Shown here: one piece after another, positions 39,184 to 61,650 of the stretch | Layout: every line of letters begins with the position of its first letter | Position numbering within the stretch: position 1 is the stretch's first letter | Assembly: GCA_016192345.1 (NCBI GenBank) | Contig: JACPUH010000012.1 | Span: 5,342-69,341 of the forward strand | Length of the DNA: 64,000 nt | From: Ignavibacteriales bacterium | Lineage (GTDB): Bacteria; Bacteroidota; Ignavibacteria; UBA10030 | Reading direction: 5' to 3' | The notes under the pieces: generated by a model | Database searches by the model: none | What the model was told of the DNA's origin: nothing | What the model saw: the letters and a program-made list of their open reading frames with translations, nothing else | Position numbers and translations under genes: made by a program

Positions 39184-39669
39184 TTACTCGGCCTTGACGC
39201 TGATCGACCGTATGTAATCAACCACGTATGCTATCTCCTTCTTGCTCATCCTCCCTCCCCACGATGGCATCAAGGGTGATCGATTAACGCCTCTTCCCCC
39301 CTGGCTCATGGTCTCAGCTACTCTCACATCGCTGAGGGCATTCATATATGCCACATCGGTAAAGTCTCTTGGCTTGGGGTCAAGGTTGAATGCGTTGAAG
39401 CCGTCGCCTTTTCCCTCCTCGCCGTGGCAAACCGAACAATACTTCAGATACAGATGTCTCCCTTGTCGCTGCTCATACGAAAGCAACCGGGACTCGGCAG
39501 CCTCGTCAACCTTCACCGACGTCTGGAGAGTATCTACGGTTTCATCCGCTTGCTGCGGCGTGGCCTCTTTTTCCTTGCAGCTCATCAGCAGCATGACGAA
39601 TGCTACGATAGCGAGAACATGGGTCATCAGATGGTACTCGACGTTATGACAGCTTGCGGGAGTTCTCAT
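39184..39669 (-). CDS. monoheme c-type cytochrome (class I), lipoprotein
   Basis: Single CSVCH heme-binding motif with downstream Met (LMPSWGG). Lipobox LLMSC. Start overlaps the stop of the upstream octaheme cytochrome gene (ATGA). Confidence 0.8.
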   Translation of the reverse strand: MRTPASCHNVEYHLMTHVLAIVAFVMLLMSCKEKEATPQQADETVDTLQTSVKVDEAAESRLLSYEQRQGRHLYLKYCSVCHGEEGKGDGFNAFNLDPKPRDFTDVAYMNALSDVRVAETMSQGGRGVNRSPLMPSWGGRMSKKEIAYVVDYIRSISVKAE

Positions 39670-41609
39670 TTCAAACTCATCAAGAAGACGGTGAGCGCTT
39701 CTGCCTCTTCGTCTGTCAAGTTGTTCTTCGGCTCGATTGTTTCAGGCTTGAATGCCTGCGGGTCCTTCAGCCAATGGAAAATCCAGCCGGGTTTGAGTCG
39801 CGAGCCGGCTTTGTCCAGTGCCGGTCCGACATATCCACCCTTGAGGTTGATCTGATGGCAAGCCTGACATCCGTATTTTTCATAGTACAGTATTTTGCCT
39901 TTGGCCATACTGTCTTGATCGACTCTTACCTCCCGTTCCACACTATCGGCGATGAACACTTTCTCCATGTAGTTGACCATCACCTTGATCTCGGCATCAG
40001 ACACGAACAGATTGGGCATCCGCTCCGGCAGGATAGGACGAAGCGAATATGGAATCTTGAAGTACTTCTCGATCCATTTCCTTTGCGCTTGACTTGCTTC
40101 AAGCGTCAAGTCGGTTGCTACGAGCCGGCCGCGCCCAAACATCGTGTGGCAGCCGAAGCAGGCAAGGTCGTCTACTAACTTCCCAAATTCCCCTTGTGGT
40201 GCGTAGGTGCTTCGCGGTTTTGGCTGGACCTTGAACTGCGCGGGAATTTCCTCCTCCGTACTGCCCAACAGTGCCACGGTGATCGCCTGAGCTTCTTCGT
40301 CTGTGAATTCATAGCTCGGCATCTTCATCGTGGGTGAAAAGACACGCGGACTTTTGACTTTTGTGAAAAGATATGAAGGAAGTGCCTGCTCGATGCTTGA
40401 CTTGCCAAAATCGATTTCATAGAGTTTTTTCGCGCCAATGGAGGTCAGGTCCGGCCCCATCTCTTCTGCCTTCGTCATCCCACCGAGTTCATGGCATCCG
40501 CTGCAGTTGTATTTCTTGAAGAGCGCACGACCTTTTTCGAAATAGGATGGGTCGGGAGTATGAGGAGGCCGTTCCTCCATTTCATAATCGACAAACTCAC
40601 TCTGGATAGAGGCAACAACGGCGGCCAGTTCTGTTTCGTTGAACCGATATCTCGGCATCTCGACACCCGGCTGCAATCGCTTTGGATTCTTCATATAACT
40701 ATAGAGCCATGCCGCATTGACTTTGCTGGCGACTTTACCGAGTTCTGTCGCGACGGTACCGCCCCGCCCGTTGATCGGGTGACAGCTGATACAGCGTGCT
40801 TCGCTCAAACGCGTCGCACCCAGTTCGGCAAGCTTCTCCCGCTGCGGTTCCGTCCCGGAGGTCAAAACCGCCGGAAGCCGATCGAGTGTTGCATCGCGGG
40901 GGAAGGTCTTCAACGTCATCAGGAAATCAGCTAGGATGTTCACCTCATCGTCGGTGAGAAAAAAATTTGGCATCCTCGTCTTCGCAAAATAAGCCTTTGG
41001 GTTTTTCAGCCAGTTGACGAGCCAGGAGCGATTAACCTTTGAGCCGATTCCGTCGAGGCTCGGCGTCCACTGTTTCTCAAACCCTTCCGTTCTGTGACAG
41101 GCTGCACAGTTCGATTCTTCGATGAGCTCTCGACCGAATGTGAGAATCGGGGCGCGCAGAACTTCTTTTTCCTTATGACACTTGCCGCACGACGCCTCCA
41201 TGAATTTGGTGGGGTACATCGGTTTGTCCCAGTATTCGACGTTGCCGACAGATCCCTTGTAGGTCGTCGCCGCGCCCTGACCTTCATGGCACACGGTACA
41301 TCCAAATTCCTCAAAGTCGTGATCGATCCGCGGGTGTGCGCGAAACGGTTGCCGGGCCTGTTGCAGTGCCGGTTCACTGAGACCGAGATGACACGTACCG
41401 CAACGGTCAATCCGGTCCAATCCCCGGACCCACAACTGCTTGATCCCGATCTCTGCGGGCTTCACCCTCCGGGGAAGTTCCGTAATGAGGCCGTTGTACT
41501 CATACTGGTACCATTTCCACTCGCGAAAGAAATCTTTCAACGGAGCAATCGCAAGGACAACGAAGAAAACGACACCGGAGAGTGCGAACGAGAGCCTGAG
41601 TTTAGTCAT
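39666..41609 (-). CDS. membrane-anchored octaheme c-type cytochrome (3 N-terminal hemes plus 5 class-I-like cytochrome c domains)
   Basis: N-terminal TM helix. Eight CxxCH motifs: CGTCH, CTVCH, CGKCH, CAACH, CISCH, CSGCH, CFGCH, CQACH. Repeated downstream RMPNF / EMPRY / KMPSY / RMPNL Met-ligand motifs. Occupies the cyt c1/f position of the bc operon. Confidence 0.85.
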   Translation of the reverse strand: MTKLRLSFALSGVVFFVVLAIAPLKDFFREWKWYQYEYNGLITELPRRVKPAEIGIKQLWVRGLDRIDRCGTCHLGLSEPALQQARQPFRAHPRIDHDFEEFGCTVCHEGQGAATTYKGSVGNVEYWDKPMYPTKFMEASCGKCHKEKEVLRAPILTFGRELIEESNCAACHRTEGFEKQWTPSLDGIGSKVNRSWLVNWLKNPKAYFAKTRMPNFFLTDDEVNILADFLMTLKTFPRDATLDRLPAVLTSGTEPQREKLAELGATRLSEARCISCHPINGRGGTVATELGKVASKVNAAWLYSYMKNPKRLQPGVEMPRYRFNETELAAVVASIQSEFVDYEMEERPPHTPDPSYFEKGRALFKKYNCSGCHELGGMTKAEEMGPDLTSIGAKKLYEIDFGKSSIEQALPSYLFTKVKSPRVFSPTMKMPSYEFTDEEAQAITVALLGSTEEEIPAQFKVQPKPRSTYAPQGEFGKLVDDLACFGCHTMFGRGRLVATDLTLEASQAQRKWIEKYFKIPYSLRPILPERMPNLFVSDAEIKVMVNYMEKVFIADSVEREVRVDQDSMAKGKILYYEKYGCQACHQINLKGGYVGPALDKAGSRLKPGWIFHWLKDPQAFKPETIEPKNNLTDEEAEALTVFLMSLK

Positions 41610-41612
41610 GAG

Positions 41613-42311
41613 TCAATAGATTCCTTCCCACGGCCATGTCCAGCCCCATTCCGGGCCGCGGAACAACGTGCCGATCGCAGTCAGAACCACCACGACCATC
41701 ACGAACCAGGTCATGACCCACCACGAAAGCGGCCGGTGACCAAGCCAGGCAATGAAACCATGCTCTCGTTTGATGAAATAGGGAGTGAGCATGAATCCTG
41801 TCATGATGAGTGTCGGCATGACCATTGCATAGACCTTGAAAAGAAGGAGGACGAGCGAAACAATCCCAACCGCGACGACAAGCGTCAGGAACGTCTCCCG
41901 CCGATGTTCTTTCCACAGGCCTTCGCGTTTGATGTTGATCTTAAAATAGGGGATGACGATCAGCGCCATGACAGCTAAGGCCGGGAGGATGACGCCGCCC
42001 ACAACCGGTGGAAAGTAGTGGAGCAGTTCTTGCAGTCCGAGAAAATACCATGGGGCTTTGGCGGGATTGGGCGTATGCTCGGGGTTGGCAATCCATTCCA
42101 GCGGTGCGTCGATGATGAGCGAAAGAACGGCGAGAAGAATGACCATGACTTCAAAAGCGATGATTTCCTTGACGACCAGGTTCGGGAAGGTCATCACCAT
42201 CTCCGCGTCTTCTTTCCTGACCCTCGCGGCCGTGCGCCCTTTGATGAATGCGATACGCGTCGGCACTTGTTTCGCGTCCCGTGTTTGTTCGACATTGAAA
42301 TCTTTACTCAT
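41613..42311 (-). CDS. cytochrome b6f-type subunit IV (C-terminal half of split cytochrome b)
   Basis: PEHTPNPAKAPWYFLGLQELLHYFP matches the cytochrome b C-terminal domain PEWYFL motif. Multiple TM helices. Confidence 0.8.
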   Translation of the reverse strand: MSKDFNVEQTRDAKQVPTRIAFIKGRTAARVRKEDAEMVMTFPNLVVKEIIAFEVMVILLAVLSLIIDAPLEWIANPEHTPNPAKAPWYFLGLQELLHYFPPVVGGVILPALAVMALIVIPYFKINIKREGLWKEHRRETFLTLVVAVGIVSLVLLLFKVYAMVMPTLIMTGFMLTPYFIKREHGFIAWLGHRPLSWWVMTWFVMVVVVLTAIGTLFRGPEWGWTWPWEGIY

Positions 42312-42322
42312 TCGCCTTTTCC

Positions 42323-42799
42323 CTAGAAGGAGGGGACGTTGAATGCAATCTCTTTCTCTAATAAACCCTGCATGCGATCCATGCGGCTACCAATGACCTT
42401 GACTAAGTTCCCCATCAAGACATGCCCCACATGATGCTTCCTGGCACAGAAGGAAAGCAGCCCTTTTCCGCGAACCTGGATCAACTCGCTCTCTTCATCG
42501 CAGTATGCGGACAAGGTAAACTGGTAGGGCTCGACGAGGGTGGACCAGCCAAAAACATTCCCTGGGATTACTACATCCACAACGATTTCCGTACTTGCGA
42601 GGAGGATAGGAATTGGAACACTGAGGTGCACTTTGCCTGAACGAACAACGTAGAACTGTTCGGCGCTCTCCCCTCTCTTGAAGATCGTAACTCCTTTTTT
42701 GAGCTTCACGATCGTGCAGAGTTCTGAAATTTGCCTGAGTTCCCTCGCCGTCAGTCCGCTGAAAAAGTTTATGCCCCCCAGAAAATGAGTGTCAACCAT
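42323..42799 (-). CDS. stand-alone cyclic-nucleotide-binding (cNMP/Crp-like) domain protein embedded in the bc-complex operon
   Basis: GLTARELRQISELCTIVKLKKGVTIFKRGESAEQFYVVRSGKV is a cNMP-binding beta-barrel signature. No DNA-binding HTH. Start taken at ATG 42799; the track ORF extends upstream. Confidence 0.55.
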   Translation of the reverse strand: MVDTHFLGGINFFSGLTARELRQISELCTIVKLKKGVTIFKRGESAEQFYVVRSGKVHLSVPIPILLASTEIVVDVVIPGNVFGWSTLVEPYQFTLSAYCDEESELIQVRGKGLLSFCARKHHVGHVLMGNLVKVIGSRMDRMQGLLEKEIAFNVPSF

Positions 42800-42999
42800 C
42801 GTATTACCCTTTCGGTGCCCGCTCTTGGCAAACGTTCTGGGTATGTTGGGGTATTCCGTCGTCGCGTTGCAGATGGACATTAAGTTTCGCAATGTGGGTT
42901 TTGGGATTTCCCACAAGTTGAGAATGACTTGGCCACTGTGTTTTGTGGCGGGACCCGTTATCGCAATCTGCAATCGACAATTGGTGATTCAGAATCACT

Positions 43000-43710
43000 C
43001 TAGACTCCTCCATCTTTCCTCACACGCCAGAAATGAATGCCCATCAGCATGGTCGCCGCAACGGGCAGGACGAAGCAATGCAGCACGTAGAATCTGACAA
43101 GCGCATTCTCTCCAACAATATTGCCACCGAGCAACAGGAAAGAAATATTGTCCCCCACACCAAACGGAACTGCGCGCGCCATGTTCGTGCCAACCGAAAT
43201 TCCCCAGAACGCTAACTGGTCCCACGGGAGTAAATAACCCGTGTAGCTGAGCAGGATCGTGAATACAAGCAGCACAACGCCGATAACCCAATTGAACTCC
43301 TTCGGAGGCCGGTACGAACCAGTGTAGAATACCCGCAGCATGTGCAGGAACACCACCGCCACCATCGCATGGGCAGCCCAGCGGTGCATGTTCCGAAGGA
43401 ATTGTCCCGACGAGACGACATACTGCAAGTCCTTCATATCCCAATAGGCCTGAGGTACCGAAGGGCGATAGTACAACATGAGCAGTGCCCCGGTGACTGT
43501 CAGGACAATGAACAAGCCGAAGGAAAGTCCGCCAAGTCCCCACGTGTAGCTGAATTTGACGGAGCGCTTCCGGACTTTGGTGGGATGGATATGGAGGAAA
43601 AAGTTATAAAAGATCGCTTCTGCCCTTGTCCGGTTGGATTCGGGCAGCCCGTGACGAAACATCGAGCGCCATACTTGTGATGCGAACAATCGTTGCCAGA
43701 GGGATTTCAT
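43000..43710 (-). CDS. cytochrome b6 (N-terminal half of split cytochrome b)
   Basis: Four-helix heme-b domain with conserved His residues ([19 protein letters not shown]; VLHCF). PWDQLAFW motif. Track start is TTG; ATG at 43710. Confidence 0.85.
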
Positions 43711-43712
43711 TC

Positions 43713-44069
43713 TCAATCTCCGAACGCTGGTTCATGCTTTTCAAATCCGACGTGCGCTTCTTCCACAGCATCGATCACCAGGGGAAAATATCGGTCGAGA
43801 CCGCAGTCCAGCCGCGATCGCGTTGAGCATCTTCCATCCGGCGTTTGATGCCGGCACGCGGCACAAACATTCCGGCGAAGGGAGTCGACATACGGCTCAA
43901 TCCTGGGATCATGCACGGAAAGAATGGCTTGGACGATTCTCGGGAAATGAGCCTTCAATCCGCACTCTTCTTCGCCACTCAAGCGGCAGTGACCATGACG
44001 ATCGCTATCCACACAGTGGGCACAGACTCTGGACTGAACGGCATGCCAATACAGTTTGAAGATTTCCAT
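43713..44069 (-). CDS. small cysteine-rich protein of unknown function within the Rieske/cyt b operon
   Basis: 118 aa from ATG 44069, preceded by GGAGG SD. Two CxxC-x7/8-C motifs ([13 protein letters not shown]; [13 protein letters not shown]) plus two further Cys. No recognisable family. Confidence 0.45.
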
Positions 44070-44082
44070 GGTGAGTTCCTCC

Positions 44083-44574
44083 TTAGACTTTGAGAATGAC
44101 TTCCTCCCCAACCATCACCCCTTTGTCCACGACTAACTGTCCTTGCTCGTCAAGCGTCATGGCAAACCGCGGCAGTGGACGCGGCGCGGGGCCTTCGAGC
44201 ACGTTTCCCTCTTTGTCAAATTTGCTCCCATGGCAGGGACACGCAATAATCTCTTCTTCCGATTTCCAGTTCGTGATGCAACCGAGATGCGTGCAGACGG
44301 CGGACACTGCAGAGAAGTACCCTTCCTTGGCGCGAACGATAAAAACCTTCTGCTCTTTGTTGAGCGTGACACTCTCCGGCGGAAAATTCTCCGTCGGCCC
44401 GGCCCTGAATTTCAGCGGCGGCTCGCGCAACACGTTGGGTGAAAGAAATTGCCCCGTCAACACCGCGCTGCCGGCAGCGACGATTCCGATTGCGCCCCCC
44501 CCGATCGTCTCGAGAAAATAACGGCGGGTGAGGATTGAGCCTTCCGATTGCTCTTTCAGCGAATCTTCAGCCAT
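44083..44574 (-). CDS. Rieske [2Fe-2S] iron-sulfur protein, Tat-exported
   Basis: Twin-arginine signal RRYFLETIGG. Cluster-binding boxes CTHLGC and CPCHGS. AAGGAG SD upstream. Confidence 0.9.
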   Translation of the reverse strand: MAEDSLKEQSEGSILTRRYFLETIGGGAIGIVAAGSAVLTGQFLSPNVLREPPLKFRAGPTENFPPESVTLNKEQKVFIVRAKEGYFSAVSAVCTHLGCITNWKSEEEIIACPCHGSKFDKEGNVLEGPAPRPLPRFAMTLDEQGQLVVDKGVMVGEEVILKV

Positions 44575-44588
44575 ACGTCAACCGCTCC

Positions 44589-46472
44589 TTAGACCGGGAC
44601 TGTTTCAGACACAGCGTACGCTTCCATGGTAATGCATCCGACCGGGCATCGCATCGCACACAGACCGCATCGGATACAGCGATCTTCATCTTTGATCATC
44701 ACGGAGCCGACGAGCTCCCCGGACTGCCCCTTCACCACGATGCGGTACTCGCTTTCAAGTTCGGCGAGCACAGTCCCTTCCGCTTCGATTCGAGTGAGCA
44801 CGACAAGATCGATGCAATTTTCGGGACAGATATCGACACAACCCCCGCAGAGGATGCATTCCGTCCCGGTTTCTTCACCCTCCGGTTCGAAGATCGTGTT
44901 TACCCAACAATGCAGGCAGCGCGAAGCCTCTTCGATCGCCTGCTCCTCCGTATACCCCAACTCAATCTGGGACACGCCGATGCGCCTGTCGATCGGCAGT
45001 ACAGGGATGGGAACCCTTTGGGTTTTCTCATATCCCCAACTGCGTTTATACTTCTTCGTATCGTACACGATAATCTCGGCTTCACGTTCGCTCAGAACGA
45101 GTTCGACCCCTTCGATCTTGTCCCTGGTGCAATAGTGGTGGATGGATCGTGCGGCTTTCTTGCCGTTCGCGACGGCATCGATTGCGTTCCGCGGACCGAA
45201 AGAGACATCCCCTCCGGCGAAGACACCCGGCGCGGTTGTGGCAAGAGTGGCAGGATCGACTTTGATGGTATTGCGTGGAGTAATCTCAATGCCGTCCCCG
45301 GGGTGAATCCACGAGAGATCGGATGTTTGACCGATGGCCATGATGACCGTGTCCGCATCCATGATCTTCTCAGTGTGCGGCGCAAATTTCGGGTTAAAGC
45401 GCCCATGGTCATCAAAGACCGATACGCAATCGACTGTTTCTAATCCCACGACTGCTCCATCTCTTCCGATAATTCTGTTCGGACCCCTCCGCGAGTGAAT
45501 CTCAATCCGTTCCTCTCTCGCCTCGGAAATCTCATCCGCGGAGGCCGGCATCTCTTTCCAATCCTCAAGGCACACCAGATGGACTTCCTTAGCGCCGAAG
45601 CGCACGGCAGACCGGGCCACATCCAACGCTTCCGCAACTTCCGTGACATGGCCGACCTCCACGCGCTCTTGCCGTGCCGCCGTCCGGGCGACATCCAGAG
45701 CCACGTTACCGCCACCGATCACGATGACCTTCTTTCCGAGCTCCACGCGGTATCCGAGATTGACGTTGAGCAGGAAATCCACGGCTCGCAGAACACCGTC
45801 AAGTTCCACGCCCTCGATTTGAAGATCGCGGCTTTTGTGTGCGCCAATCGCGATGAAGAAAGCCTGGAATCCTTGCCGCTGGAGATCCGTAAGGGAGAAA
45901 TCACGACCCACGGCGGCATTGAGTTTGAGTTCCACACCAAGACTGAGAATGGCATTGACCTCAAGCCGTATAAGCTCCCGGGGAAGACGATACTCCGGGA
46001 CGCCAAGGCGCAACATGCCGCCTGCCACCGACTGGGCTTCGAAGACGGTGACTTCGTAGCCGAGCAGGGCAAGATCATGGGCGCAGGAAAGTCCCGCCGG
46101 CCCCGCCCCCAACACAGCCACTTTTATCCGGTTTTTCCTGACTGACTTGCCGAAAACTTCTTTGAGCTTCTCCAAATCGAGCATGCTTTCCACACCGTAC
46201 CGCTCGCAGGCGAATCGTTTGAGCGCGCGGATGGCAATCGGCTGATCGAACTTCCCAAGACGGCACGCTCGCTCGCACGGTGCGGCGCAAATGCGTCCGC
46301 AGATTGATGCAAACGGATTGGGACGGCGGGCGACGTGATAGGCTTCCCGATAACGTCCCTCCTCAATCAGCGCAACATAGCGCCCTGCCTCGGTATGCAC
46401 GGGGCAGGCCGCCATGCAGGGAAAGTTGGAGTCAAGCCACTCAAGGTTTACGAATTTCAGTTGGTCCGGCAT
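44589..46472 (-). CDS. GltD-like (glutamate synthase small-subunit family) NAD(P)H:FAD oxidoreductase with N-terminal Fe-S Cys motifs and C-terminal 2x[4Fe-4S] ferredoxin domain
   Basis: N-terminal CMAACPVH...CGRICAAPCERAC. Two dinucleotide-binding folds (VAVLGAGPAGLSCA; VIVIGGGNVALDVA). C-terminal CILCGGCVDICPENC and CIRCGLCAMRCPVGC. 14 nt upstream of the Rieske gene. Confidence 0.75.
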   Translation of the reverse strand: MPDQLKFVNLEWLDSNFPCMAACPVHTEAGRYVALIEEGRYREAYHVARRPNPFASICGRICAAPCERACRLGKFDQPIAIRALKRFACERYGVESMLDLEKLKEVFGKSVRKNRIKVAVLGAGPAGLSCAHDLALLGYEVTVFEAQSVAGGMLRLGVPEYRLPRELIRLEVNAILSLGVELKLNAAVGRDFSLTDLQRQGFQAFFIAIGAHKSRDLQIEGVELDGVLRAVDFLLNVNLGYRVELGKKVIVIGGGNVALDVARTAARQERVEVGHVTEVAEALDVARSAVRFGAKEVHLVCLEDWKEMPASADEISEAREERIEIHSRRGPNRIIGRDGAVVGLETVDCVSVFDDHGRFNPKFAPHTEKIMDADTVIMAIGQTSDLSWIHPGDGIEITPRNTIKVDPATLATTAPGVFAGGDVSFGPRNAIDAVANGKKAARSIHHYCTRDKIEGVELVLSEREAEIIVYDTKKYKRSWGYEKTQRVPIPVLPIDRRIGVSQIELGYTEEQAIEEASRCLHCWVNTIFEPEGEETGTECILCGGCVDICPENCIDLVVLTRIEAEGTVLAELESEYRIVVKGQSGELVGSVMIKDEDRCIRCGLCAMRCPVGCITMEAYAVSETVPV

Positions 46473-46656
46473 AGGTCAACGATTCTGCTTCTAAATCTTT
46501 TGCCCGCGCACAGAGAGATCCAGAGCGCCACCGACTGCGGCGAACAGCAGGAGCCTCGCGATAAAACAAAGAGCCGTCGTCACCACCGCAGTTTGCCATC
46601 TTGACTCGTTCATTGGTTCCCGGCCCTCGCTCCCCCTGTTCAACCGCATTGGTTGC

Positions 46657-47253
46657 TTACTTCTTAACCTCAAAATTGACAATCACCTCTCCCTTGTCCG
46701 GCACTTCCACCGTGACGGATTCCCCTTTCAGCTTCTCGTGCCAAATCCTCAGCGTGTGTTTTCCCGGCGGGACATCTTTCACGGTGTAGCTCCCGTCCTT
46801 CTCACTGACCGCATAGTAGGGAGTTTCCATCACGAGGATGAAGGCTTCCATTTCAGGATGAACTTTGCACAGCATCACCGACGCACAGCCGGGATCCGTA
46901 AAGGTGAACGACCGCACCTGACCTTTCGGCCAGGTGCCAAGGTTGAATTTCTCGGCACACTTGTCGGGCGTAAAAACGTTGTGCAGGACATCGTCGCTGT
47001 TCAGATAGTCAACGGTGGATCCGACAACAACCGGAAGAATGTGAGGGATAAAAACGAGATTCTTCTGATCCATCGTTGCATGTTCTTTCGGCGGCTGGAA
47101 GGTCTTGCCGGGAATCTTATCGATGAAAATCACTGCATCTCCGCTGTGTTTTACCCCTCTTGCTTTTACCTTGCCCTTGATATCGCCCGCCATCAAACCG
47201 TCACTCCACGTCCATGCCAGGAGTGCTGTCATAACGATGAATAAGGCCCTCAT
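46657..47253 (-). CDS. secreted type-1 (blue) copper protein, amicyanin/pseudoazurin-like cupredoxin, with C-terminal beta-sandwich extension
   Basis: Signal peptide. FIPHILPVVVGSTVDYLNSDDVLHNVFT and CKVHPEM give a His...Cys-x2-His-x2-Met type-1 Cu site, spaced as in amicyanin CTPHPFM. Confidence 0.7.
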   Translation of the reverse strand: MRALFIVMTALLAWTWSDGLMAGDIKGKVKARGVKHSGDAVIFIDKIPGKTFQPPKEHATMDQKNLVFIPHILPVVVGSTVDYLNSDDVLHNVFTPDKCAEKFNLGTWPKGQVRSFTFTDPGCASVMLCKVHPEMEAFILVMETPYYAVSEKDGSYTVKDVPPGKHTLRIWHEKLKGESVTVEVPDKGEVIVNFEVKK

Positions 47254-47410
47254 ACATCACCCTTTCAGTAATTGTGTTTTTTTAAAAGAGAGGAGGCGAG
47301 AAAATCATTCGACAGTGATTGTTCCACCGTCTGTGACTTCCTCAGGCTCCGCTCTCCCATCCTTCATGAAATTCCAGGTACCCTGGTGTCCGGGTGGTTG
47401 CGCATCACGG

Positions 47411-48661
47411 TCATATACCGAAATTGAATTGAAGCGTAAAGGTATCCCGCTTCTTGTTCGCCTCGTCGAGGAATTTTTTGAATTCAAACACCAGCTTGAC
47501 GTTGGCACGCGCCATCACGGTAACGCCGGGGATGAGTGCATTCACCGGTTTCACCAGGTCCGCATCGGTATCCCGGTCCTCCCATTCGTACCGCACGAGG
47601 CCGATCAGCCACGGGTAGAACACATAGTTTCCCTGGGCATAATACACCATGGATGATCTGTCCGCGGTTCCGTCGATCGTTGAATTCATGAGCATCAGCG
47701 CTCCGTTGACGACGAAACGGTTGTACCAAAAATCGACATCCCCGCCAAGCACCGTGAAGTCCTCATCCAACGCGTTCGCCCTCGAGGCGGTGCCCTTATA
47801 GAAGAAGGCTCCGAGCGTCACCGAATTATCGAGATAGAATTCCGACGCCTGACTCTCGGCCCCCTCTGTGCCTCCGATTTCACCGAGCCCTCCGATTTTA
47901 TACGTTGCCTTGCCATAGAGATCTTTTTGAGGATTGATGTCGGTCAATCCCTGGCCGTTCACGATGCCGAGACGATAGGTAAACCCGCCACGATCGCCCG
48001 CGCCATTGGCAGCGCCCCACACTTCGAGTCCGTTATGATCATCGCGGAACCGCCATCCATTCCGACTTCGAAAGCTCGCCATGTTGTAGTGATTCCGTGT
48101 GAGCCGGAGATGCGTGGGTGTTGGATCGGCATGCGCCATCCCCACTCGGATGTGAAAACCGGGGCTGAAATCATACTGTAGGGCGAACGGGAAGGCGATT
48201 TCGGTCTCGTTGGCTTCATTCTCAACCTCGAGCTCCCCGAAGAACGAAAAGTTCTCGCCAATAGTGCCTCCATAGAGAAATTCAAGCTCATGCGGTATTT
48301 CCAGGCTCCACTTCACATTGGCGATGGCTGCATATTCGATTCGACCGATAGCCCAGATACCGATGGGGATCGTGCCGGGAATGTCGGCAGGCCAGATGGC
48401 GTCGGGCCAAACTCTCTTGTAGCCTTCCGATCCTATGCTGACCGGCTCTTCTTTCGTCATTTCAGGGTCCGTACCTCCCGGATAGCGATATCCGTTGTTC
48501 TTGAACGCTTTCCCGAAAGCATTGAGCATGGGAGCGGCATAGTGGCAGGTGCTGCAGCTCGTCTTGTACTTGCGCGAGAACGATGGAATGGCATAGACGT
48601 GCTCCGCAGCGATCGCCATGACCAGAATAATGAGGACTACCGTTGCAACAAGCGTTTTCAT
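47411..48661 (-). CDS. Cyc2-like fused monoheme cytochrome c - outer-membrane beta-barrel porin
   Basis: Signal peptide (VYA cleavage) followed at once by CSTCH heme motif (FSRKYKTSCSTCHYAAPMLNAFG). The remaining ~370 aa show amphipathic beta-strand periodicity and end in an aromatic-rich terminus (FTLQFNFGI). AGGAGG SD upstream. Confidence 0.55.
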   Translation of the reverse strand: MKTLVATVVLIILVMAIAAEHVYAIPSFSRKYKTSCSTCHYAAPMLNAFGKAFKNNGYRYPGGTDPEMTKEEPVSIGSEGYKRVWPDAIWPADIPGTIPIGIWAIGRIEYAAIANVKWSLEIPHELEFLYGGTIGENFSFFGELEVENEANETEIAFPFALQYDFSPGFHIRVGMAHADPTPTHLRLTRNHYNMASFRSRNGWRFRDDHNGLEVWGAANGAGDRGGFTYRLGIVNGQGLTDINPQKDLYGKATYKIGGLGEIGGTEGAESQASEFYLDNSVTLGAFFYKGTASRANALDEDFTVLGGDVDFWYNRFVVNGALMLMNSTIDGTADRSSMVYYAQGNYVFYPWLIGLVRYEWEDRDTDADLVKPVNALIPGVTVMARANVKLVFEFKKFLDEANKKRDTFTLQFNFGI

Positions 48662-48698
48662 ACAGCCTCCTGATGGGTGGTTGAATGACGGTGATACC

Positions 48699-49079
48699 TT
48701 AGGGTTTACCGTTCATGTGAAGACACGTTCTTACAGCATCCCGAAGCTTATTGAGTTCCAAGGGCTTCAGAAGAAAATAATCGGCGCCATACGTCTTCGC
48801 CGCTGCCTCGGTGATACGATCGGGATAACCGGTGATGACGATAACCGGAAGCTTGGGATGAATCGCCTTGACGTGAAGAAGAAGGGTGACACCGGAGTGG
48901 AGCTTCAATCGCACGTCGGTGACAAGGAGATCTACACGATGGCCTTCGAGCTTCTGAAGGGCTTCTTCGGCGCTCGTCACCCCGATCATGCTGCAATTCT
49001 CCCTCCGTAAGAAATCCTCAAATGCAGCAAGAATATTATGGTCGTCGTCTATCACCAGCACGGTCGGTTGACTGGACAT
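48699..49079 (-). CDS. stand-alone response-regulator receiver (CheY-like) protein
   Basis: TVLVIDDDHNIL...VDLLVTDVRL...KLPVIVITGY receiver motifs; no output domain. ATG at 49079 (track start is TTG). Ends 37 nt before the Cyc2-like gene start. Confidence 0.8.
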   Translation of the reverse strand: MSSQPTVLVIDDDHNILAAFEDFLRRENCSMIGVTSAEEALQKLEGHRVDLLVTDVRLKLHSGVTLLLHVKAIHPKLPVIVITGYPDRITEAAAKTYGADYFLLKPLELNKLRDAVRTCLHMNGKP

Positions 49080-49275
49080 CCCTACCCCTCTCGTCAATCC
49101 CCTTCTTTATTCAAGAGGCGTACCACGACGGCATGATAAGGCAAGACTGCGAGATTGAGCCGAATTGGGCGAAATGGTCAAACGGTGCGGGGGAAAAAAC
49201 GAGGAAGTGCCAAGGGGGACTTGGCAGTCTGCAAAGCGGGACTTGTCACCGGGAGATCGGTACAACGAGGCAGGA

Positions 49276-50676
49276 TTAACCCCTGAAGGACTTCGCTTTG
49301 ATATCGTGCTTCGACATCAGTCGCTGAAAATTTTGCCGGGTCATGCGGGAACCCTTGGCGGCAGCGGTCACATTACCGTGGTATTTCCGTAAGAGCTCCG
49401 AGACAAACTGGCGCTCGAACATCTGAAGGAGATTAATTCGGGACTTCCCGAAATTCTCACTCATCATGGGCAGCGAAGGAGATCGGACCGACGTATCAAG
49501 AACTGGTTCCTGCAGTGCGTCGGGAAGAATCACGTCACCTTTTGTTAACATCACGGCGCGTTCAAGAAGGTTTTCGAGTTCACGAACGTTTCCCGGATAA
49601 GGGTACGTTTGGAGAAATGTCATCGCTTCGTCTGAAAAACCTGCGACCGACTTTTTGAGCTGTCTGTTGTATTTCATCAGGAAATAGTTGGCAAGATGGG
49701 AAATATCTTCGTTCCTCTCCCGCAGGGGCGGCAGATTGACCGTGACGACCTTCAACCGGAAAAAGAGATCCTCTCTGAAATTTCCGTTCTTCATCTCTAA
49801 TTCGATATCGTGGTTGGTCGCGCAAACAAATCGCCCCCCAACGCGGATGGCAGTGTTCCCCCCCAGGCGTTCAAACTCACGCTCTTGCAGGACTCTCAAA
49901 AGCTTTTGCTGGAGATGCGGCGAGAGGTTCCCAATCTCATCAAGAAAAATCGTCCCCTCCTGGGCGATTTCGAACTTCCCGAGCTTGCGCTCTCCTGCAC
50001 CTGTAAACGCTCCTTTTTCGTGTCCAAACAGCTCCGATTCGAGTAACGGCTCGGGAAGCGCCGTACAGTCAATGGGAACGAACGGTTGGTGGGCGTTGGG
50101 GCTCGCATTGTGAATCGCCCTCGCAACGAGTTCCTTCCCGGTTCCACTTTCACCGAGAATCAGGATCGAGGTGTGATTCGGAGTTGTCGAAATCGATCCG
50201 ATGAGCTTATACACCTCTTGCATCGGGGCGCTCCTGCCGATCAGTTCGTACCGATCGGCCATGTCCCCATGGTATTGACCATGACGGCCTGCCATGGAAG
50301 ATGTTCTGCCAGTGCTGGCCAATGCCTCGCGAGTGACGGCGCGGATCTTGCCGACATCCAGCGGTTTCGTAAGATATTCGAATGCGCCAAGTTGAATTGC
50401 CTTAATGGCTGTTTGCATCGTACCATAGCCGGTGATGATCACGATGGGCATACGCTCGTCTTGCGTTTTCATCTGTTTCAGCACTTCGAGTCCGTCGACC
50501 TTCGGCATCGTGATGTCCATGAACACCACGCCAGGATGATCCGAGGAGATTTTCTTCAACGCCTCCTGTCCATCCCGCGCGAGGACGGTCTTGTACCCGT
50601 CCTTCCGCAGAACTTCGCGGAATGCAAAGAGAATTTTCGGATCATCGTCCACAACCAGCACTGTTGGTTTCTTCAT
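49276..50676 (-). CDS. sigma-54-dependent transcriptional regulator, NtrC family (receiver + AAA+ + Fis-HTH)
   Basis: Receiver domain. AAA+ sigma54-activator domain with GESGTGKELVARAIH and GAFTGA-like motif. C-terminal HTH. Confidence 0.9.
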   Translation of the reverse strand: MKKPTVLVVDDDPKILFAFREVLRKDGYKTVLARDGQEALKKISSDHPGVVFMDITMPKVDGLEVLKQMKTQDERMPIVIITGYGTMQTAIKAIQLGAFEYLTKPLDVGKIRAVTREALASTGRTSSMAGRHGQYHGDMADRYELIGRSAPMQEVYKLIGSISTTPNHTSILILGESGTGKELVARAIHNASPNAHQPFVPIDCTALPEPLLESELFGHEKGAFTGAGERKLGKFEIAQEGTIFLDEIGNLSPHLQQKLLRVLQEREFERLGGNTAIRVGGRFVCATNHDIELEMKNGNFREDLFFRLKVVTVNLPPLRERNEDISHLANYFLMKYNRQLKKSVAGFSDEAMTFLQTYPYPGNVRELENLLERAVMLTKGDVILPDALQEPVLDTSVRSPSLPMMSENFGKSRINLLQMFERQFVSELLRKYHGNVTAAAKGSRMTRQNFQRLMSKHDIKAKSFRG

Positions 50677-53183
50677 ACTCCCATACCATTGGTGATCGGC
50701 AGGTAGATCTTGAACATCGCACCCCCGGCTTGTGAACGTTTGACGGTCACAATGCCTCCGTGCGCATTCACCGTCTGCTTCACCATCGGTAGACCAAGAC
50801 CCGTCCCGTTCGTCTTTGTCGTAAAGAAAGGATCAAAGATGCGACCGATGATCGTTGTGGGGATCCCCGAACCTGTATCGGTCACCTCGACGAGCGCGCA
50901 TGCCGTGCCTTTCTGAAGAACAATTTCCACACCGGCCCGGCCGTCCTTGTTTTGATTACCATCGTAGAGATGGGTAAACGTGAAATCGTGCAGTGTTTCA
51001 CGAAGGATGATTTTCTTCGTCGCGATGGACACGATTTCTTCCTTCGCACGCGCCGGCTTGCTTTCAATGGCCTGGGCTGCATTGAACAAGATGTTCACAA
51101 CGACTTCCTTGAATCGCTGGGTGTCGAGCGGCAGGTTGGAGAGGGTCGGGTCAAGTGTTTGCTGCACATGGATTCGTTCCTTGTTCAAGTGCGGTTTCAC
51201 GAAGTCGAGGCTGTCGTTGATGATTTTATTCAGATTGGCTGTCTGAAACTGAAGCGGCGAGGGTCTGGCAAAACTTAAGAGATCGGCAACAATCTGCTCC
51301 ATGTGGTAAATTGAGTTGAGTGCGACACGCAGGGATTTCTTGTCGGAACGGCTCAGCTGCTTCGATTCACTGTGAAGCTGTAAGATCATCTTGATGGAGG
51401 TCAGGGAGTTCCGAAATTCATGGGCAATAAGAGCCGACATTTCGCCGGTCGCCATCAGCCGCTCCGTCCGGAGAAGATGCTGTTCGAGCCGCTTTCGCTC
51501 CGTCACGTCGGTGATGATCTCGAGAATGGCATGAAGGTCTCCCTCTTTTTTCAGCGGGATTGCCGCATGCTCGATATAGCGGTCCCCACGACCCGTACCG
51601 GCAATGTGGTCGATGTGGCTCGCTATTCTTCCCGAGGATACTGCGATCCTTGAGACACATTGGTGACAGAACCCGCCTTCGCAAAATATCGTCGCACAAT
51701 CCTTCCCACGGACATTGTCGAGCTGCAACCCCGTGATCGATCCAAAGGCGGCGCTTGCCGTTTGAATGCGGTAGTCTTTGTCCAGGAGAACGAAGGCGCT
51801 TGGCACATTGTCGAGAATCGCCTGCAGCTTCGTCTTCTCTTCGGTAAGTTCCTTGGTACGGACTTGCACCAATTCTTCAAGCCTTGTTCGGTGCTGCTGG
51901 ATCTCCTCCTCACGGGCCTCAAGGGACGCAGCCATGAAATTAAACTGCTCTCCGAGTTTCTCAATCTCATCATGGGTCTCAACGTTCAGCCGGTGGTGAT
52001 AATTTCCCCGGGCAATCGTTTCCGCCCCTTGCTGCAACGCAGCGATCGGCTTTGTGAACTGTTGCGTTGCAATCAGGCCCAGTCCGATCGCGACGCCGAG
52101 AAAAAGCATGAGAAAGGCGGCAAACATCCATGCAAAGGAAGACGCAGGTCCGAGGACCACATGGTTGGGGACACTTTCAAACACGTAGAACGGCACGGAA
52201 AACGATGTGAAAGATTGATTGGCCGATAGCGCTGCTCCCCCAAAGAGAGGAGCATAGGCGATGATTTCATCGATTCCTTCCGACACAATTCCACTGTTCC
52301 CGGAAAGCACGGAATCCACCACCGCCGCTGGATAATCGTGCTGGAGATTATCGTCTTCCCGCGACGCCAGGAGTTTATTCCATTCTGTTTTCTTTTCACT
52401 ATGGTAGAGGTAATGGCCATCTCCGCTGACGAGAACTGTTTTCCCGTTGAGGCTGAAATGTCTCGGGGTTTCCATGATGAGGAAGAGATCCTTTGCGAAG
52501 ACATTGGCTACGAGCAATCCTGCTCGTTTTCCCGGCACATCGGGTTTCTCACCTTGACGAGCGAGCGGCGTCACAAAACTGATAATAGGGATGCGCTCAT
52601 TGCTCTGGCTCACGAGCTCTGCCGCCGTGAAGGCTAGTGCATTGGGCTGAAGACCCTCTGCAAGCAGGAAATAAAACGACTCTCGTCCCGCCCGGAGTTC
52701 TTGAGCCGGGACAACCCGATAGCGCTGCATGGAGTCGGGTGCGTCCGTGCTCTCACCACGGATCACTTCATCCCCTGTTTCACTGATAATGCGGAGCTGA
52801 TAATAAATCCCCTTTGTCCGTAACCACGCCAGAAGCTCGTCATTCAATCGCCCGGACACACGATCACCCTGGCGCAAGCTGGAAGAGCTCAAAGCTTGCA
52901 CATACCCCTGAAGCGATGGGGAATTCTTCAACAACCGGAGGTCACTCTCGACATTGGTAAGAAAATTTGCGGTCTTCTCGCGTATGGTACGAACGTCGTG
53001 CGAGAGGTTTTCGTACGCAATCTCCTTCATCATGCTGACGTTTGAGAAAATGCCGTGAAGGCCAAGCACGACAACGGGGATAATGGAAAGACCGGCAAAC
53101 GCGATAATGAGCTTGCTGCGGATGGAAAGCCAGGGGAATATGCTGTTGAGGTTGATCAAGGAGTGCGCCCTACGGTCACTCAT
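50673..53183 (-). CDS. sensor histidine kinase (periplasmic sensor domain, HAMP, PAS, HisKA, HATPase)
   Basis: TM - ~300-aa periplasmic domain - TM. H-box EMSALIAHEFRNSL. ATPase G-boxes (DTGSGIP, GTGLGL). Stop overlaps the NtrC start. ATG at 53183 (track start is GTG). Confidence 0.85.
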   Translation of the reverse strand: MSDRRAHSLINLNSIFPWLSIRSKLIIAFAGLSIIPVVVLGLHGIFSNVSMMKEIAYENLSHDVRTIREKTANFLTNVESDLRLLKNSPSLQGYVQALSSSSLRQGDRVSGRLNDELLAWLRTKGIYYQLRIISETGDEVIRGESTDAPDSMQRYRVVPAQELRAGRESFYFLLAEGLQPNALAFTAAELVSQSNERIPIISFVTPLARQGEKPDVPGKRAGLLVANVFAKDLFLIMETPRHFSLNGKTVLVSGDGHYLYHSEKKTEWNKLLASREDDNLQHDYPAAVVDSVLSGNSGIVSEGIDEIIAYAPLFGGAALSANQSFTSFSVPFYVFESVPNHVVLGPASSFAWMFAAFLMLFLGVAIGLGLIATQQFTKPIAALQQGAETIARGNYHHRLNVETHDEIEKLGEQFNFMAASLEAREEEIQQHRTRLEELVQVRTKELTEEKTKLQAILDNVPSAFVLLDKDYRIQTASAAFGSITGLQLDNVRGKDCATIFCEGGFCHQCVSRIAVSSGRIASHIDHIAGTGRGDRYIEHAAIPLKKEGDLHAILEIITDVTERKRLEQHLLRTERLMATGEMSALIAHEFRNSLTSIKMILQLHSESKQLSRSDKKSLRVALNSIYHMEQIVADLLSFARPSPLQFQTANLNKIINDSLDFVKPHLNKERIHVQQTLDPTLSNLPLDTQRFKEVVVNILFNAAQAIESKPARAKEEIVSIATKKIILRETLHDFTFTHLYDGNQNKDGRAGVEIVLQKGTACALVEVTDTGSGIPTTIIGRIFDPFFTTKTNGTGLGLPMVKQTVNAHGGIVTVKRSQAGGAMFKIYLPITNGMGV

Positions 53184-53409
53184 GCCGTCACAGAACACAT
53201 CGCTTTCTACAAACGGTATGCCCGACCTCCAAGGTGTGCACTCAAGTGAGCAACCCGCAATCTGGCCCGCACATACGCCCTATAACGATCAGGGTAGGCT
53301 TTACTCCCAGCCAATATAATTCTCGGTTCTGAGAATGGAGGTGAGTGTTCTTCTCAGAAGTGAACATGGCGCGTGTTACAAAATTCGCTCTCCTCCCAAA
53401 AGCGAGGCC

Positions 53410-56629: not shown

Positions 56630-56800
56630 GTATGACTCCACGCAGTCCCGACCAAGAGTGCCGGGATTCTAAAAAGTTCGATCCGCCCGCTGGGAAACGC
56701 TCCTGCCCGTCCGGGCTGGCATAGGAGATTTTGGCACCTGCGCTTTGTGAACGTAGCGCCGGTTGGCTTCTTCGTCTCGGATCATAGGACCGATAGTCTC

Positions 56801-59800: not shown

Positions 59801-59821
59801 AAGAAATAGGGCTCCCCTCAT
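56801..59821 (-). CDS. TonB-dependent outer-membrane receptor with N-terminal carboxypeptidase-regulatory-like domain (paralog of 31295..33994)
   Basis: Signal peptide. CarbopepD_reg-like N-terminus (GRVTDGATGEPLIGANVIMEET...GEYIVLSVPPGTYT). Plug and 22-strand barrel. Confidence 0.85.
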   Translation of the reverse strand: MRGALFLLIASMVAISAQVSAQDGKLRGRVTDGATGEPLIGANVIMEETTIGAASDINGEYIVLSVPPGTYTVKASFIGYGAITVSNIRVSANLTTTQDFHLQSTLIQTREIVITAERPLIQRNTTNTVRMQTQEDIRSLSFRGLQNILALSAGVMQQDGTLYVRGGRAGEVAYFIDGATATNPLFRSEAISPIQEAIEEIQLQSGGYTAEFGGANSGIVRTTMRTGGSQFRASLDVQTDDFAKPGKQFLGTSARGFRNVVLTVSGPILENLRFFVAGQHNYLRNRSSMYLEPFSFENMVTDAFGTRVEGTPLPGTIEIKRNYLYKNWRNENTAQGTLLWDMNPWKVRFSGSYGEVDLPTGHSWPDALRNLFWRRDYRNKTKNMLANLRVTHVLGPKAFYEVGASYLNRDFRAYDPDFGDDWKLYNDSVASRDKGYMTANGSTEFLTRFQGPANYSTIYGFAPNFPDPGFTHEFAPNNSYQLNSQNSIGLTVDFTSQVNPRWELKAGGKIDSWTMRLFSVGAIGTLNTFLAQSGDTYTADKLAGDANLRKEYDIFVQRQGGMNLYGYDIDGNKIDDGFAGPRKPFFASAYIQNKFEFNDLVLNLGVRYELFDMKNVAPIDYVNPTWDEHLDYFTGDDWLKETDPSHLLLPRVSFSFPVNDRTVFYAMYGKYAQLPELNRLYDGVRFLASRISPQTRVGYALSTSGGMGFLVKPERTTQYEVGIRQILFDNFAFTATGFYKDLKDQIQLNRVTNDLGVPLFVSYGNPAFGTVKGLELTLELRRTNRLRANVNYTLSDARGTASNPVSSFSAVSADAAGRFPSFINQLDYNQTHRGTIMLDYRWGNGEGGKILQGFGANAVLTFNSGHPYTKGEEPEELGQSNPWNVGMASVHLPAEPINSSSTPWVFNVDLSLNKVFFFDDFTGELYVNVFNLFDTKHVVNVFRNTGTPTDDGWLRSHFAAPYREIPNYDEFYRAININNRWAYVSATGRDIYGAPREVRVGLKLEL

Positions 59822-60046
59822 GACTATCTCCTTTGGCTTGCAGACGTTTTTCAGATCACACTGCGGAGATTCGAAACTGATCCTCTTTCCCCGTTATGAA
59901 GCCAAAGCAACCATTCTTCTTAACACTGCCACAACTTTGACATTCTTGTCTGAATAATGAATGCGCCTCAAAAAAAACAGCTGCGTTAGCATCCTCCTCT
60001 TTGGACCCATGCCAATTCCAACATTCGCTCCAACTCCAGAACCGAG

Positions 60047-60272
60047 GGCGCACGTTCACAACATCTGTCGCTCCTTGGGCGAAAGGTTCGGCCGCTTGAA
60101 GATGACCACAATAACGACCGCCCATACCATGACGAGTGTGCTGCCAATCGCAGCGACAAGGCCGGATTTGCATTCCGTACATGCGGTGACGTAATCAAAG
60201 AGACCATGCCAGACTGCGACCAGGAGAATACTTCCCCCGCTGCTGTTATAGAGCCACGTAAGAAAAATGGAA
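60047..60272. repeat. direct repeat copy B (within the 3' end of the intact CPBP gene)
   Basis: See copy A at 53410..53635. Confidence 0.7.
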
Positions 60273-60925: not shown

Positions 60926-61008
60926 GGGACTTGCCACTGGCGTGTCCGTGTTGAGCGTTGGAGCCGCTGTGTGACGAGATGCAAGCTTTCAGAGATGTCA
61001 GCCGGAAT

Positions 61009-61569: not shown

Positions 61570-61650
61570 CGCGGCGACCGTTGGGCGATAGCGCGACGTC
61601 ACGTTCCGGGCCTGCAAAACCAAGTTGCTGCTGTCCTTTCGGTTGGCCAC

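Follow-up and report, generated by a model that had tools for sequence, protein, structure and literature searches.

The 64,000-nucleotide (nt) stretch analyzed here, called the window below, belongs to contig JACPUH010000012.1 (positions 5,342–69,341) of the Ignavibacteriales bacterium assembly GCA_016192345.1. It contains an array of minus-strand genes in which a sensor histidine kinase, an NtrC-family sigma-54 activator, and a stand-alone receiver lie directly upstream of genes for a Cyc2-type cytochrome–porin, a cupredoxin, a flavoprotein, and a Rieske/cytochrome b complex with associated c-type cytochromes. The gap between the activator and receiver genes exposes a putative sigma-54 promoter and two tandem palindromes, an arrangement that points to regulation of the respiratory genes by the adjacent two-component pair.

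All genes from 53198 down to 39184 lie on the minus strand, as a preliminary description of this DNA had stated and as the open reading frame (ORF) listing and Pfam scans confirm. The 4-nt overlap of the kinase and activator genes and the spacing of exactly 37 nt between the receiver end and the Cyc2 start were likewise correctly described. The likelier starts are ATG 53183 for the kinase (836 amino acids) and ATG 49079 for the receiver (126 amino acids), both in agreement with gene models on identical contigs. Co-directionality is uninformative by itself: most of the 24–64 kb region is on the minus strand, including unrelated genes for a LacI-type protein, an amylase, a Ser/Thr kinase, and a TonB receptor. 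A scan of one genome per species recovered 80 related loci, whose gene content was read from profile searches with the window proteins. The order kinase–activator–(receiver)–Cyc2–cupredoxin–GltD-like flavoprotein–Rieske–cytochrome b–multihaem cytochrome c–cytochrome c recurs in most of them and spans Ignavibacteria, Bacteroidota, Calditrichota, Latescibacterota, Fidelibacterota, Acidobacteriota, and other lineages. The kinase–activator pair, whose genes overlap or abut (median gap −4 nt), sits directly upstream of Cyc2 in most of the 80 loci. Conservation in relatives does not extend to the flanking Ser/Thr kinase and LacI genes. Because the gene order is kept and the flanking genes are not, we judge the array non-random, and an order shared across phyla between variable flanks therefore indicates that the regulators travel with the module.

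The kinase is built of a transmembrane segment, a dCache-like periplasmic domain, a second transmembrane segment, and a cytoplasmic portion made of HAMP, Cys-containing PAS, HisKA, and HATPase_c domains (Pfam dCache_1/HK_sensor_dom_bact, HAMP, PAS, HisKA, and HATPase_c). Profile comparison places the kinase core nearest ZraS/AtoS. The activator contains a full Sigma54_activat domain (PF00158, E = 2.7e-65) preceded by a receiver domain (Response_reg, PF00072, E = 2.2e-32) and accompanied by AAA_lid_14. Its translation exposes the Walker motifs GESGTGKE and FLDEIG, the sigma-54-contact loop HEKGAFTGAGE, and the receiver residues DD(10–11), D54, T82, and the lysine of LTKPL. The match to the Fis-type helix-turn-helix is weak (HTH_8, PF02954, E = 0.007, 16.5 bits versus a cut-off of 22), and the C-terminal segment GNVTAAAKxSxMTRQNFQRLM is conserved. 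The nearest NCBIfam models are AtoC, NtrC, and ZraR, with scores of 436 versus a cut-off of 714 for AtoC and 413 versus 559 for NtrC; judged by these scores, the activator is a member of the NtrC family and no equivalog or orthologue of any named system. The stand-alone receiver is 33% identical to the receiver domain of the activator in a gapless alignment of 122 residues, and by this similarity the two are paralogous. It is present in loci of the Ignavibacteria/Bacteroidota type and absent from those of the Calditrichota type.

The preliminary description had left the promoter unresolved; we can now place a candidate in the 196-nt gap between the NtrC and receiver genes. It had been missed because only the two gaps downstream of Cyc2 (46473–46656 and 47254–47410) were searched. 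The absence of a −24/−12 element from those two gaps holds, as a scan with a sigma-54 position weight matrix (PWM) finds none of at least 4 bits in either, and the gap between the cytochrome b and cyclic nucleotide (cNMP)-binding genes also contains nothing of at least 4 bits. The element TGGTACGCCTCTTGAA (GG-N10-GA; TGGTAC-N5-TTGA) is the only correctly oriented intergenic PWM candidate within the array and ends, at 49110, 30 nt short of the receiver ATG at 49079. The family consensus TGGYAYR-N4-TTGM has one match in the 64 kb, at 49111–49125 and on the correct strand. Relatives carry TGGCAC-N5-TTGC or TTGA at the orthologous position, and several of them have perfect sites of the TGGCACG-N4-TTGCA type (L060, TGGCACGACTGTTGCA; L069, TGGCACAAGCGTTGCA; L058, TGGCATGTTTGTTGCT). 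An alignment of twelve receiver-type regions leaves GG.A......TTG as the invariant columns of the promoter block.

The position of the element is conserved as well. In 41 of 76 non-identical loci, the 155 nt preceding the start of the receiver or Cyc2 gene contain a PWM site of at least 9.5 bits, where the locus-wide rate predicts 1.7. The same matrix finds sites before the cupredoxin gene in 0/68 control regions, before the GltD-like gene in 1/48, and before the multihaem gene in 0/45. The sites lie 26–36 nt before the receiver start, or 49–88 nt before Cyc2 where the receiver is missing. Their presence follows that of the activator: a site accompanies 36 of 49 loci with an adjacent activator and 4 of 18 without one (Fisher p = 2e-4).

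Upstream of this element, two palindromes that we call upstream activating sequences (UAS) are stacked with their centers 22 bp apart. UAS-2, proximal to the promoter, is a perfect palindrome, and the distal UAS-1 matches the family palindrome at 12 of 14 positions; they are the only matches with three or fewer mismatches in the window. Of the 26 non-identical receiver-type loci, 20 have the tandem pair, at nearly the same distance from the promoter and usually with the same 22-bp spacing (21–23 bp in single loci), and matches of at least 12/14 number 29 in 1.18 Mb of loci. Classic NtrC-type enhancers are arranged in this way. Loci of the Calditrichota type carry GGTGGCA-N3-TGTCACC instead, and the recognition helix of the activator changes with the site: MTRQNFQRLM accompanies TGCCAAG-N5-CTTGGCA, and I(E/Q)RQSFQRLM accompanies GGTGGCA-N3-TGTCACC. 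Such co-variation is what would be expected if the adjacent activator binds the palindromes. The sequence TGGCACttcctCGTTT at ~49213 was considered as a possible second promoter and rejected, as it makes up the right half of UAS-2.

The genes that follow the promoter encode an electron-transport module headed by Cyc2. Published criteria for this family are a leader peptide, a single CXXCH preceded by the motif AXPXFAR[Q/K][T/Y] and followed four residues later by PXL, a length greater than 365 residues, and a porin (Keffer et al., PMC8406198). The 416-residue window protein has a leader peptide, a single CXXCH (CSTCH, residue 36), and the motif AIPSFSRKY-KTS-CSTCH-YAA-PML, which contains one substitution (A to S); relatives read AIPAFARKY. 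Its AlphaFold model consists of a β-barrel (res. 101–415) with a predicted local distance difference test (pLDDT) of 70–87 over much of the barrel and 64 overall, and Foldseek superimposes the model on the 16-strand porins OmpF, Omp32, and PorB at E ~1e-10. By the published criteria, applied to its sequence and modeled fold, the protein is a true Cyc2-type cytochrome–porin. Pfam and NCBIfam hold no Cyc2 model; FeGenie Cyc2 matches have been published for Ignavibacteriales metagenome-assembled genomes (MAGs), without genomic context. Exact copies of the protein are found on three short metagenomic contigs, and its homologues come from genomes named Ignavibacteria, Bacteroidota, Calditrichota, Latescibacterota, and Fidelibacterota.

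The copper ligands of the cupredoxin (H91, C129, H132, and M135) are kept in 71–72 of 72 orthologues. Its profile match is weak (Copper-bind, PF00127, E = 0.0031, 18.4 bits versus a cut-off of 21.2), and amicyanin and NirK are matched at E = 0.002–0.03. The flavoprotein contains Pyr_redox_2 (PF07992, E = 3.4e-31), Fer4_20 (PF14691, E = 5.7e-20), and Fer4_7 domains, matches NCBIfam NF009410, and carries an extra C-terminal 2x[4Fe-4S] domain; its nearest solved chains include NfnA, the NfnI large subunit, GltD, and DPD (E = 1e-40 to 1e-92). The Rieske protein and the N-terminal and C-terminal/subunit IV parts of cytochrome b are encoded together, in an order kept in relatives. Given the Cyc2 criteria, the copper ligands, and these Rieske/cytochrome b genes, the name Cyc2–cupredoxin–bc module, used in the preliminary description, is a fair one. 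The gene that separates Rieske from cytochrome b encodes a 118-residue protein whose eight cysteines (2 x C-x2-C-x8-C-x7-C) are invariant in 10 of 10 orthologues; it has no Pfam or NCBIfam match and is a candidate for an extra metal-cluster subunit. The octahaem cytochrome c reaches 102 bits against the NCBIfam ExtS model (cut-off 100), and the subunit IV-like protein scores 60 bits against an ExtQ-like model (cut-off 150). The two cytochrome b genes are separated by one for a cNMP-binding protein that has no DNA-binding domain; in relatives, this gene follows Cyc2, the cupredoxin, or the multihaem cytochrome c, or is absent. The gap between the cupredoxin and flavoprotein genes contains a 40-residue hydrophobic ORF that is weakly conserved at the same position in four relatives (L004 and L053–L055) and may encode a small membrane subunit.

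Table 1 Features of the Cyc2 array and its upstream region, in window coordinates.
Feature	Position	Strand	Description and evidence
Sensor histidine kinase	50673..53183 (ORF list: GTG start 53198)	-	Pfam; 836-residue gene model on identical contigs
NtrC-family sigma-54 activator	49276..50676	-	Pfam; GAFTGA read in translation
UAS-1, distal	49230..49248	-	TGACAAGtcccgCTTTGCA; 12/14 match to family palindrome; center ~-114 from the -26 T
UAS-2, proximal	49208..49226	-	TGCCAAGtccccCTTGGCA (TGCCAAG-N5-CTTGGCA); perfect palindrome; center ~-92 from the -26 T
-24/-12 element	49125..49110	-	TGGTACgcctcTTGAA = TGGTACGCCTCTTGAA; PWM 10.5 bits
Stand-alone receiver, 126 residues	48699..49079 (ORF list: to 49097)	-	Pfam Response_reg, E = 3.1e-23
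Cyc2-type fused monohaem cytochrome c–porin, 416 residues	47411..48661	-	Motifs; AlphaFold/Foldseek
Long hairpin followed by UUUU	47284..47358	-	Cyc2–cupredoxin gap
Secreted type-1 cupredoxin, 198 residues, fused to CarboxypepD_reg-like β-sandwich	46657..47253	-	Copper ligands
40-residue hydrophobic ORF	46491-46613	-	MNESRWQTAVVTTALCFIARLLLFAAVGGALDLSVRGQKI
Cytoplasmic NfnB/GltD-like FAD/NAD(P) Fe-S flavoprotein	44589..46472	-	Pfam, NCBIfam
Rieske [2Fe-2S] protein, twin-arginine-type leader	44083..44574	-	Pfam Rieske (PF00355), E = 4.9e-14; RRYFLE read in translation
Cys-rich protein, 118 residues	43713..44069	-	Eight invariant Cys
Cytochrome b, N-terminal (b6-like) part	43000..43662	-	Pfam Cytochrome_B (PF00033), E = 4.1e-44
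cNMP-binding-domain protein	42323..42880	-	Pfam cNMP_binding, E = 6.1e-13
Cytochrome b C-terminal/subunit IV-like membrane protein	41613..42311	-	Pfam Cytochrom_B_C (PF00032), E = 1.4e-07
Membrane-anchored octahaem cytochrome c	39666..41609	-	Eight CXXCH; Pfam Cytochrom_C x4
Monohaem cytochrome c, last conserved cluster gene	39184..39669	-	4-nt overlap with octahaem gene
Degenerate -24/-12-like element	53208..53223	-	GGGCATACCGTTTGTA; 7.6 bits in window and L004; 24 nt before kinase ATG
Palindrome, ATTCTCA-N4-TGAGAAT family	53319..53336 (also 53350-53367)	-	13/14; ~100 bp upstream of the kinase-proximal element
Open frame without start codon	53426-53680	-	From Ser/Thr kinase stop to 53426

Taken together, the array is best read as a dedicated two-component, sigma-54-dependent switch for the Cyc2-headed respiratory operon, a reading to which we give a probability of about 0.75 on the sequence evidence. 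In the proposed mechanism, the membrane kinase, with its periplasmic dCache-like domain and cytoplasmic Cys-PAS domain, would autophosphorylate upon receiving its signal and pass the phosphoryl group to the NtrC-type activator of the overlapping gene. The phosphorylated activator would then assemble on the tandem palindromes (49208–49226 and 49230–49248) and, via ATP hydrolysis, open the sigma-54 holoenzyme bound at TGGTAC-N5-TTGA (49125–49110). Transcription would start ~20 nt before the receiver ATG, proceed through the receiver and Cyc2 genes, and read through past a hairpin, probably attenuated, into the genes for the cupredoxin, the Rieske/cytochrome b and NfnB-like flavoprotein, and the c-type cytochromes. 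In the simplest reading, the stand-alone receiver is a second phospho-acceptor of the same kinase; as the first induced product, it would most likely compete for the phosphoryl groups of that kinase and provide feedback, as a phosphate sink or connector. The preliminary description had suggested sigma-54/two-component control of the whole electron-transport module. The promoter, enhancer, and co-variation strongly support such control of at least the receiver and Cyc2 genes, and we infer its extension to the whole ~10-kb module. The gene content, the motifs, and the conservation, placement, and co-variation of those motifs are observed directly, whereas the phosphotransfer partners, the extent of the transcript, the signal, the role of the receiver, and the presence of sigma-54 itself are inferred.

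Several observations weigh against this switch. The PWM was written from the published TGGCACG-N4-TTGCW consensus, and the window promoter, at only 10.5 bits, is weak alone: eight window sites score higher. The other high-scoring sites, such as those at 28759, 23506, 41814, and 43192, overlap coding regions in sense or antisense orientation and were disregarded. The closest relative, L004, reads CGGTAT...TTGAG at this position and scores poorly. Because the loci are phylogenetically related, P-values are inflated, which leaves the positional precision and the negative controls untouched. The C at −12 that completes the GC doublet, a hallmark of sigma-54 promoters, is replaced by A in the window; 54 unique orthologous sites have A (28), C (16), T (8), or G (2) there. 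An RpoN-box motif search of the 64-kb window and all 83 loci found no rpoN, and the gaps after the Cyc2 and cupredoxin genes are wide in the window (157 and 184 nt), the former containing a long hairpin followed by UUUU. The unconserved −12 C and the absence of rpoN from the window and the fetched loci would fit an element that serves another protein, or a lineage-specific promoter of the sigma-70 family, with the activator acting elsewhere; housekeeping promoters of the Bacteroidota group are atypical. We nevertheless consider such an element very unlikely. Its GG-to-TTG spacing is exact, its flanks show the base preferences of sigma-54 (T at −26 and −15, C or T at −23 and −21, A at −22, and a purine at −20), and several orthologues are perfect. 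Its presence correlates with an adjacent sigma-54 activator, and a tandem palindrome lies at the classic enhancer distance. The kinase-proximal sites of the same genomes are mostly TTGC, and the −12 A therefore belongs to the Cyc2-operon promoter rather than to the lineage. Wang and Gralla reportedly suggested, for the −12 region, that a non-consensus −12 base loosens the silent closed complex. A search of the literature for RpoN of Ignavibacterium album found none; sigma-54 regulons are documented for Bacteroidota and Chlorobiia (PMC12316311). That the two-component and respiratory genes are neighbors by accident, with the kinase and activator regulating unrelated targets, is hardly credible. 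Nothing specific speaks for it beyond the commonness of two-component genes and the co-directionality of most of the window, whereas the neighborhood is kept in most loci across several phyla, and the only enhancer palindromes and the only consensus promoter match of the window sit between the activator and receiver–Cyc2 genes.

A narrower version, in which the sigma-54 promoter drives the receiver and Cyc2 genes only, the hairpin terminates most transcripts, and the downstream genes use one or more separate unrecognized promoters, draws on the Cyc2–cupredoxin gap itself. Its 157 nt fold with −51.6 kcal/mol (z = −3.0), a generic scan places a terminator-like site at 47331..47311, and L004, the closest relative, retains the hairpin with two changes that, judged by eye, appear compensatory. 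This gap is also the widest within the cluster in relatives (median 102 nt). Yet it measures 30 nt or less in 10 of 71 loci, and terminator-like hairpins follow Cyc2 in just 5 of 58 loci, a count made with a crude detector that also missed the long hairpin of the window. The wide gap between the cupredoxin and flavoprotein genes has a median of only 25 nt in relatives, and the GltD–Rieske and Rieske–cytochrome b medians are 25 nt or less; in the window, gaps downstream of the flavoprotein gene are mostly −4 to 50 nt, with 119 nt between the N-terminal cytochrome b and cNMP-binding genes. There is no sigma-54 site before the cupredoxin or GltD-like gene, and the generic scan finds no minus-strand sigma-70-type site in either gap; over 38.6–53.8 kb, its terminator-like sites occur at chance level, and its sigma-70-like sites number 15 versus 9.2 in shuffles (~1.8 standard deviations). 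The whole gene order also travels with the regulators across phyla. We consider this narrower version rather unlikely. Because the genes are closer in many relatives and no sigma-54 site precedes the internal genes, a single sigma-54-driven transcript, with attenuation or processing after Cyc2, appears most likely, and the hairpin is possibly an attenuator or an mRNA-stabilizing element. A further question, compatible with the proposed switch, concerns only the signal. The ~300-residue periplasmic domain, correctly noted in the preliminary description, lies between two hydrophobic segments, is retained in orthologues, and passes the HK_sensor_dom_bact threshold, in favor of an extracytoplasmic ligand; its dCache_1 match is weak (32 bits versus a cut-off of 45). 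The PAS domain carries the motif C-x4-C-x4-C-x2-C (51657–51698), of which C501, C511, and C514 (841-residue numbering) are kept in 32–35 of 39 orthologous kinases across phyla and C506 in the Ignavibacteria group. This motif may form an Fe–S, metal, or redox sensing site, for which NreB-type kinases offer a parallel, and the sequence by itself does not tell which cofactor, if any, would be bound. Because the cysteines are conserved across phyla, a Cys-ligated cofactor (Fe–S cluster or metal) would be an equally plausible kinase input; that intracellular redox or metal status is sensed in place of a dCache ligand is, in our estimate, somewhat short of an even chance.

The regulatory mechanism is ordinary, and its parts are those of NtrB/NtrC–glnAp2, AtoS/AtoC, and ZraS/ZraR: a kinase, a REC–AAA+ activator with GAFTGA and a putative HTH, a −24/−12 promoter, and two tandem dimer-type palindromes ~110–140 bp upstream of the start. 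Unlike these systems, the pair studied here scores below the equivalog cut-offs of NCBIfam, targets a respiratory operon, has a −12 A in about half of the family, places a stand-alone receiver first in the regulated operon, and uses a sensor composed of dCache and a Cys-rich PAS. In Acidithiobacillus ferrooxidans, RegB/RegA act on sigma-70 promoters of the rus operon, whose first gene is cyc2 (PMC5506826). Both systems have Cyc2 at the head of an operon with a cupredoxin and are linked to a bc-type complex and a dehydrogenase-like gene, in A. ferrooxidans (rus/petI) under redox-responsive two-component control (PMC5506826, PMC10654088). However, the rus promoters are of the sigma-70 type and RegA is no sigma-54 activator. 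The window array unites Cyc2, the cupredoxin, and Rieske/cytochrome b in one cluster, encodes no cytochrome oxidase, and has an NfnB/GltD-like flavoprotein where A. ferrooxidans has a short-chain dehydrogenase.

The individual components also have relatives elsewhere. The window Cyc2 shares its signal peptide, haem motifs, length, and 16-strand porin with Mariprofundus Cyc2PV-1, A. ferrooxidans Cyc2, and Leptospirillum Cyt572; it differs in having FSR for FAR and in its apparently starch-degrading heterotrophic host. By composition, the module resembles the Rieske/cytochrome b complexes of anammox bacteria, which contain a Rieske protein, a split cytochrome b, a multihaem cytochrome c, and a GltD-like FAD/Fe–S subunit. 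From this composition, others have proposed that the anammox complexes bifurcate electrons from quinol between NAD(P)+ and an acceptor of high potential (discussed in 10.1101/855817). They occur in other phyla, and the complex described here is genetically coupled to Cyc2 and a cupredoxin. The octahaem cytochrome reaching the ExtS cut-off and the ExtQ-resembling subunit IV recall the Geobacter ext (selenite/tellurite reduction) operon; the ExtQ score is far below its cut-off, and there is no Ext-type porin–cytochrome.

In the searchable literature (open-access papers and preprints), Acidithiobacillus is the only case in which cyc2 regulation is described, and neither this cluster nor its control by sigma-54 turned up. 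A paper on an Antarctic Cyc2 chemolithotroph and another on sequence-similarity networks likewise do not mention the cluster. What is new is the Cyc2–cupredoxin–Rieske/cytochrome b–NfnB-like target, its conservation across phyla together with its regulators, and the combination of a promoter-specific −12 A with an operon-encoded receiver. Cyc2 is the most widely used metagenomic marker for iron oxidation, and the array flags an uncharacterized Cyc2–cupredoxin–Rieske/cytochrome b–NfnB-like complex in organisms usually seen as heterotrophs or iron reducers. The regulon signature is searchable in MAGs and would tell inducible Cyc2 modules apart from others. The sensor domain can be screened for ligands, and the promoter and enhancer provide material for reporters. 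A more speculative reading, which we think rather unlikely, takes the cluster as a horizontally mobile sense-and-respire cassette, in which a kinase sensing extracellular iron or redox state, through dCache and a Cys-ligated PAS cofactor, would act via sigma-54 to induce a Cyc2-fed Rieske/cytochrome b complex, whose NfnB-like subunit would link extracellular electron exchange directly to NAD(P)(H) by a bifurcating or confurcating Q-cycle. If true, it would give heterotrophic Ignavibacteria and other bacteria of the Fibrobacterota–Chlorobiota–Bacteroidota (FCB) group a facultative iron-linked energy or reductant pathway, with leakiness and feedback adjusted by the conserved −12 A and the receiver encoded in the operon.

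A possible second regulatory region lies upstream of the kinase gene in the sub-clade to which the window belongs. The degenerate −24/−12-like element found there is replaced at the same position in L053, L010, L007, L038, and L019 by strong canonical sites of 15–19 bits. A palindrome different from those before the receiver, of the ATTCTCA-N4-TGAGAAT family, is found upstream of it. This palindrome is present in 9 of 36 non-identical loci, versus 0.028 expected per locus, and always together with a −24/−12 element. The arrangement suggests a cascade in which another activator would control the kinase–activator operon via sigma-54. Farther upstream, the start-less frame that begins at the Ser/Thr kinase stop encodes a hydrophobic, C-terminal-looking peptide and may be a gene remnant; its assignment as a fragment of a CPBP/Rce1-type protease was a guess with no Pfam match in support and was dropped.

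The remainder of the window (1–38000 and 53681–64000) encodes glycoside hydrolases (GH97, GH57, and GH13), a MalK-type ABC transporter (starch/maltodextrin), a Ser/Thr kinase with tetratricopeptide repeats, proteins sorted by the type IX secretion system, PorV, and TonB-dependent receptors. The host looks like a polysaccharide-degrading heterotroph. An Rfam scan of the whole 64-kb window returned no matches. The G+C content of the cluster is 0.51–0.56, versus 0.57–0.60 in the 18–38 kb region. Among the related loci, L058 (18358–20596), L073 (on the same contig as L005), and L028 (1–5700) mark genomes with two Cyc2–cupredoxin pairs, and in L028 two kinase–activator pairs lie side by side, which suggests duplication or repeated acquisition of the cassette.

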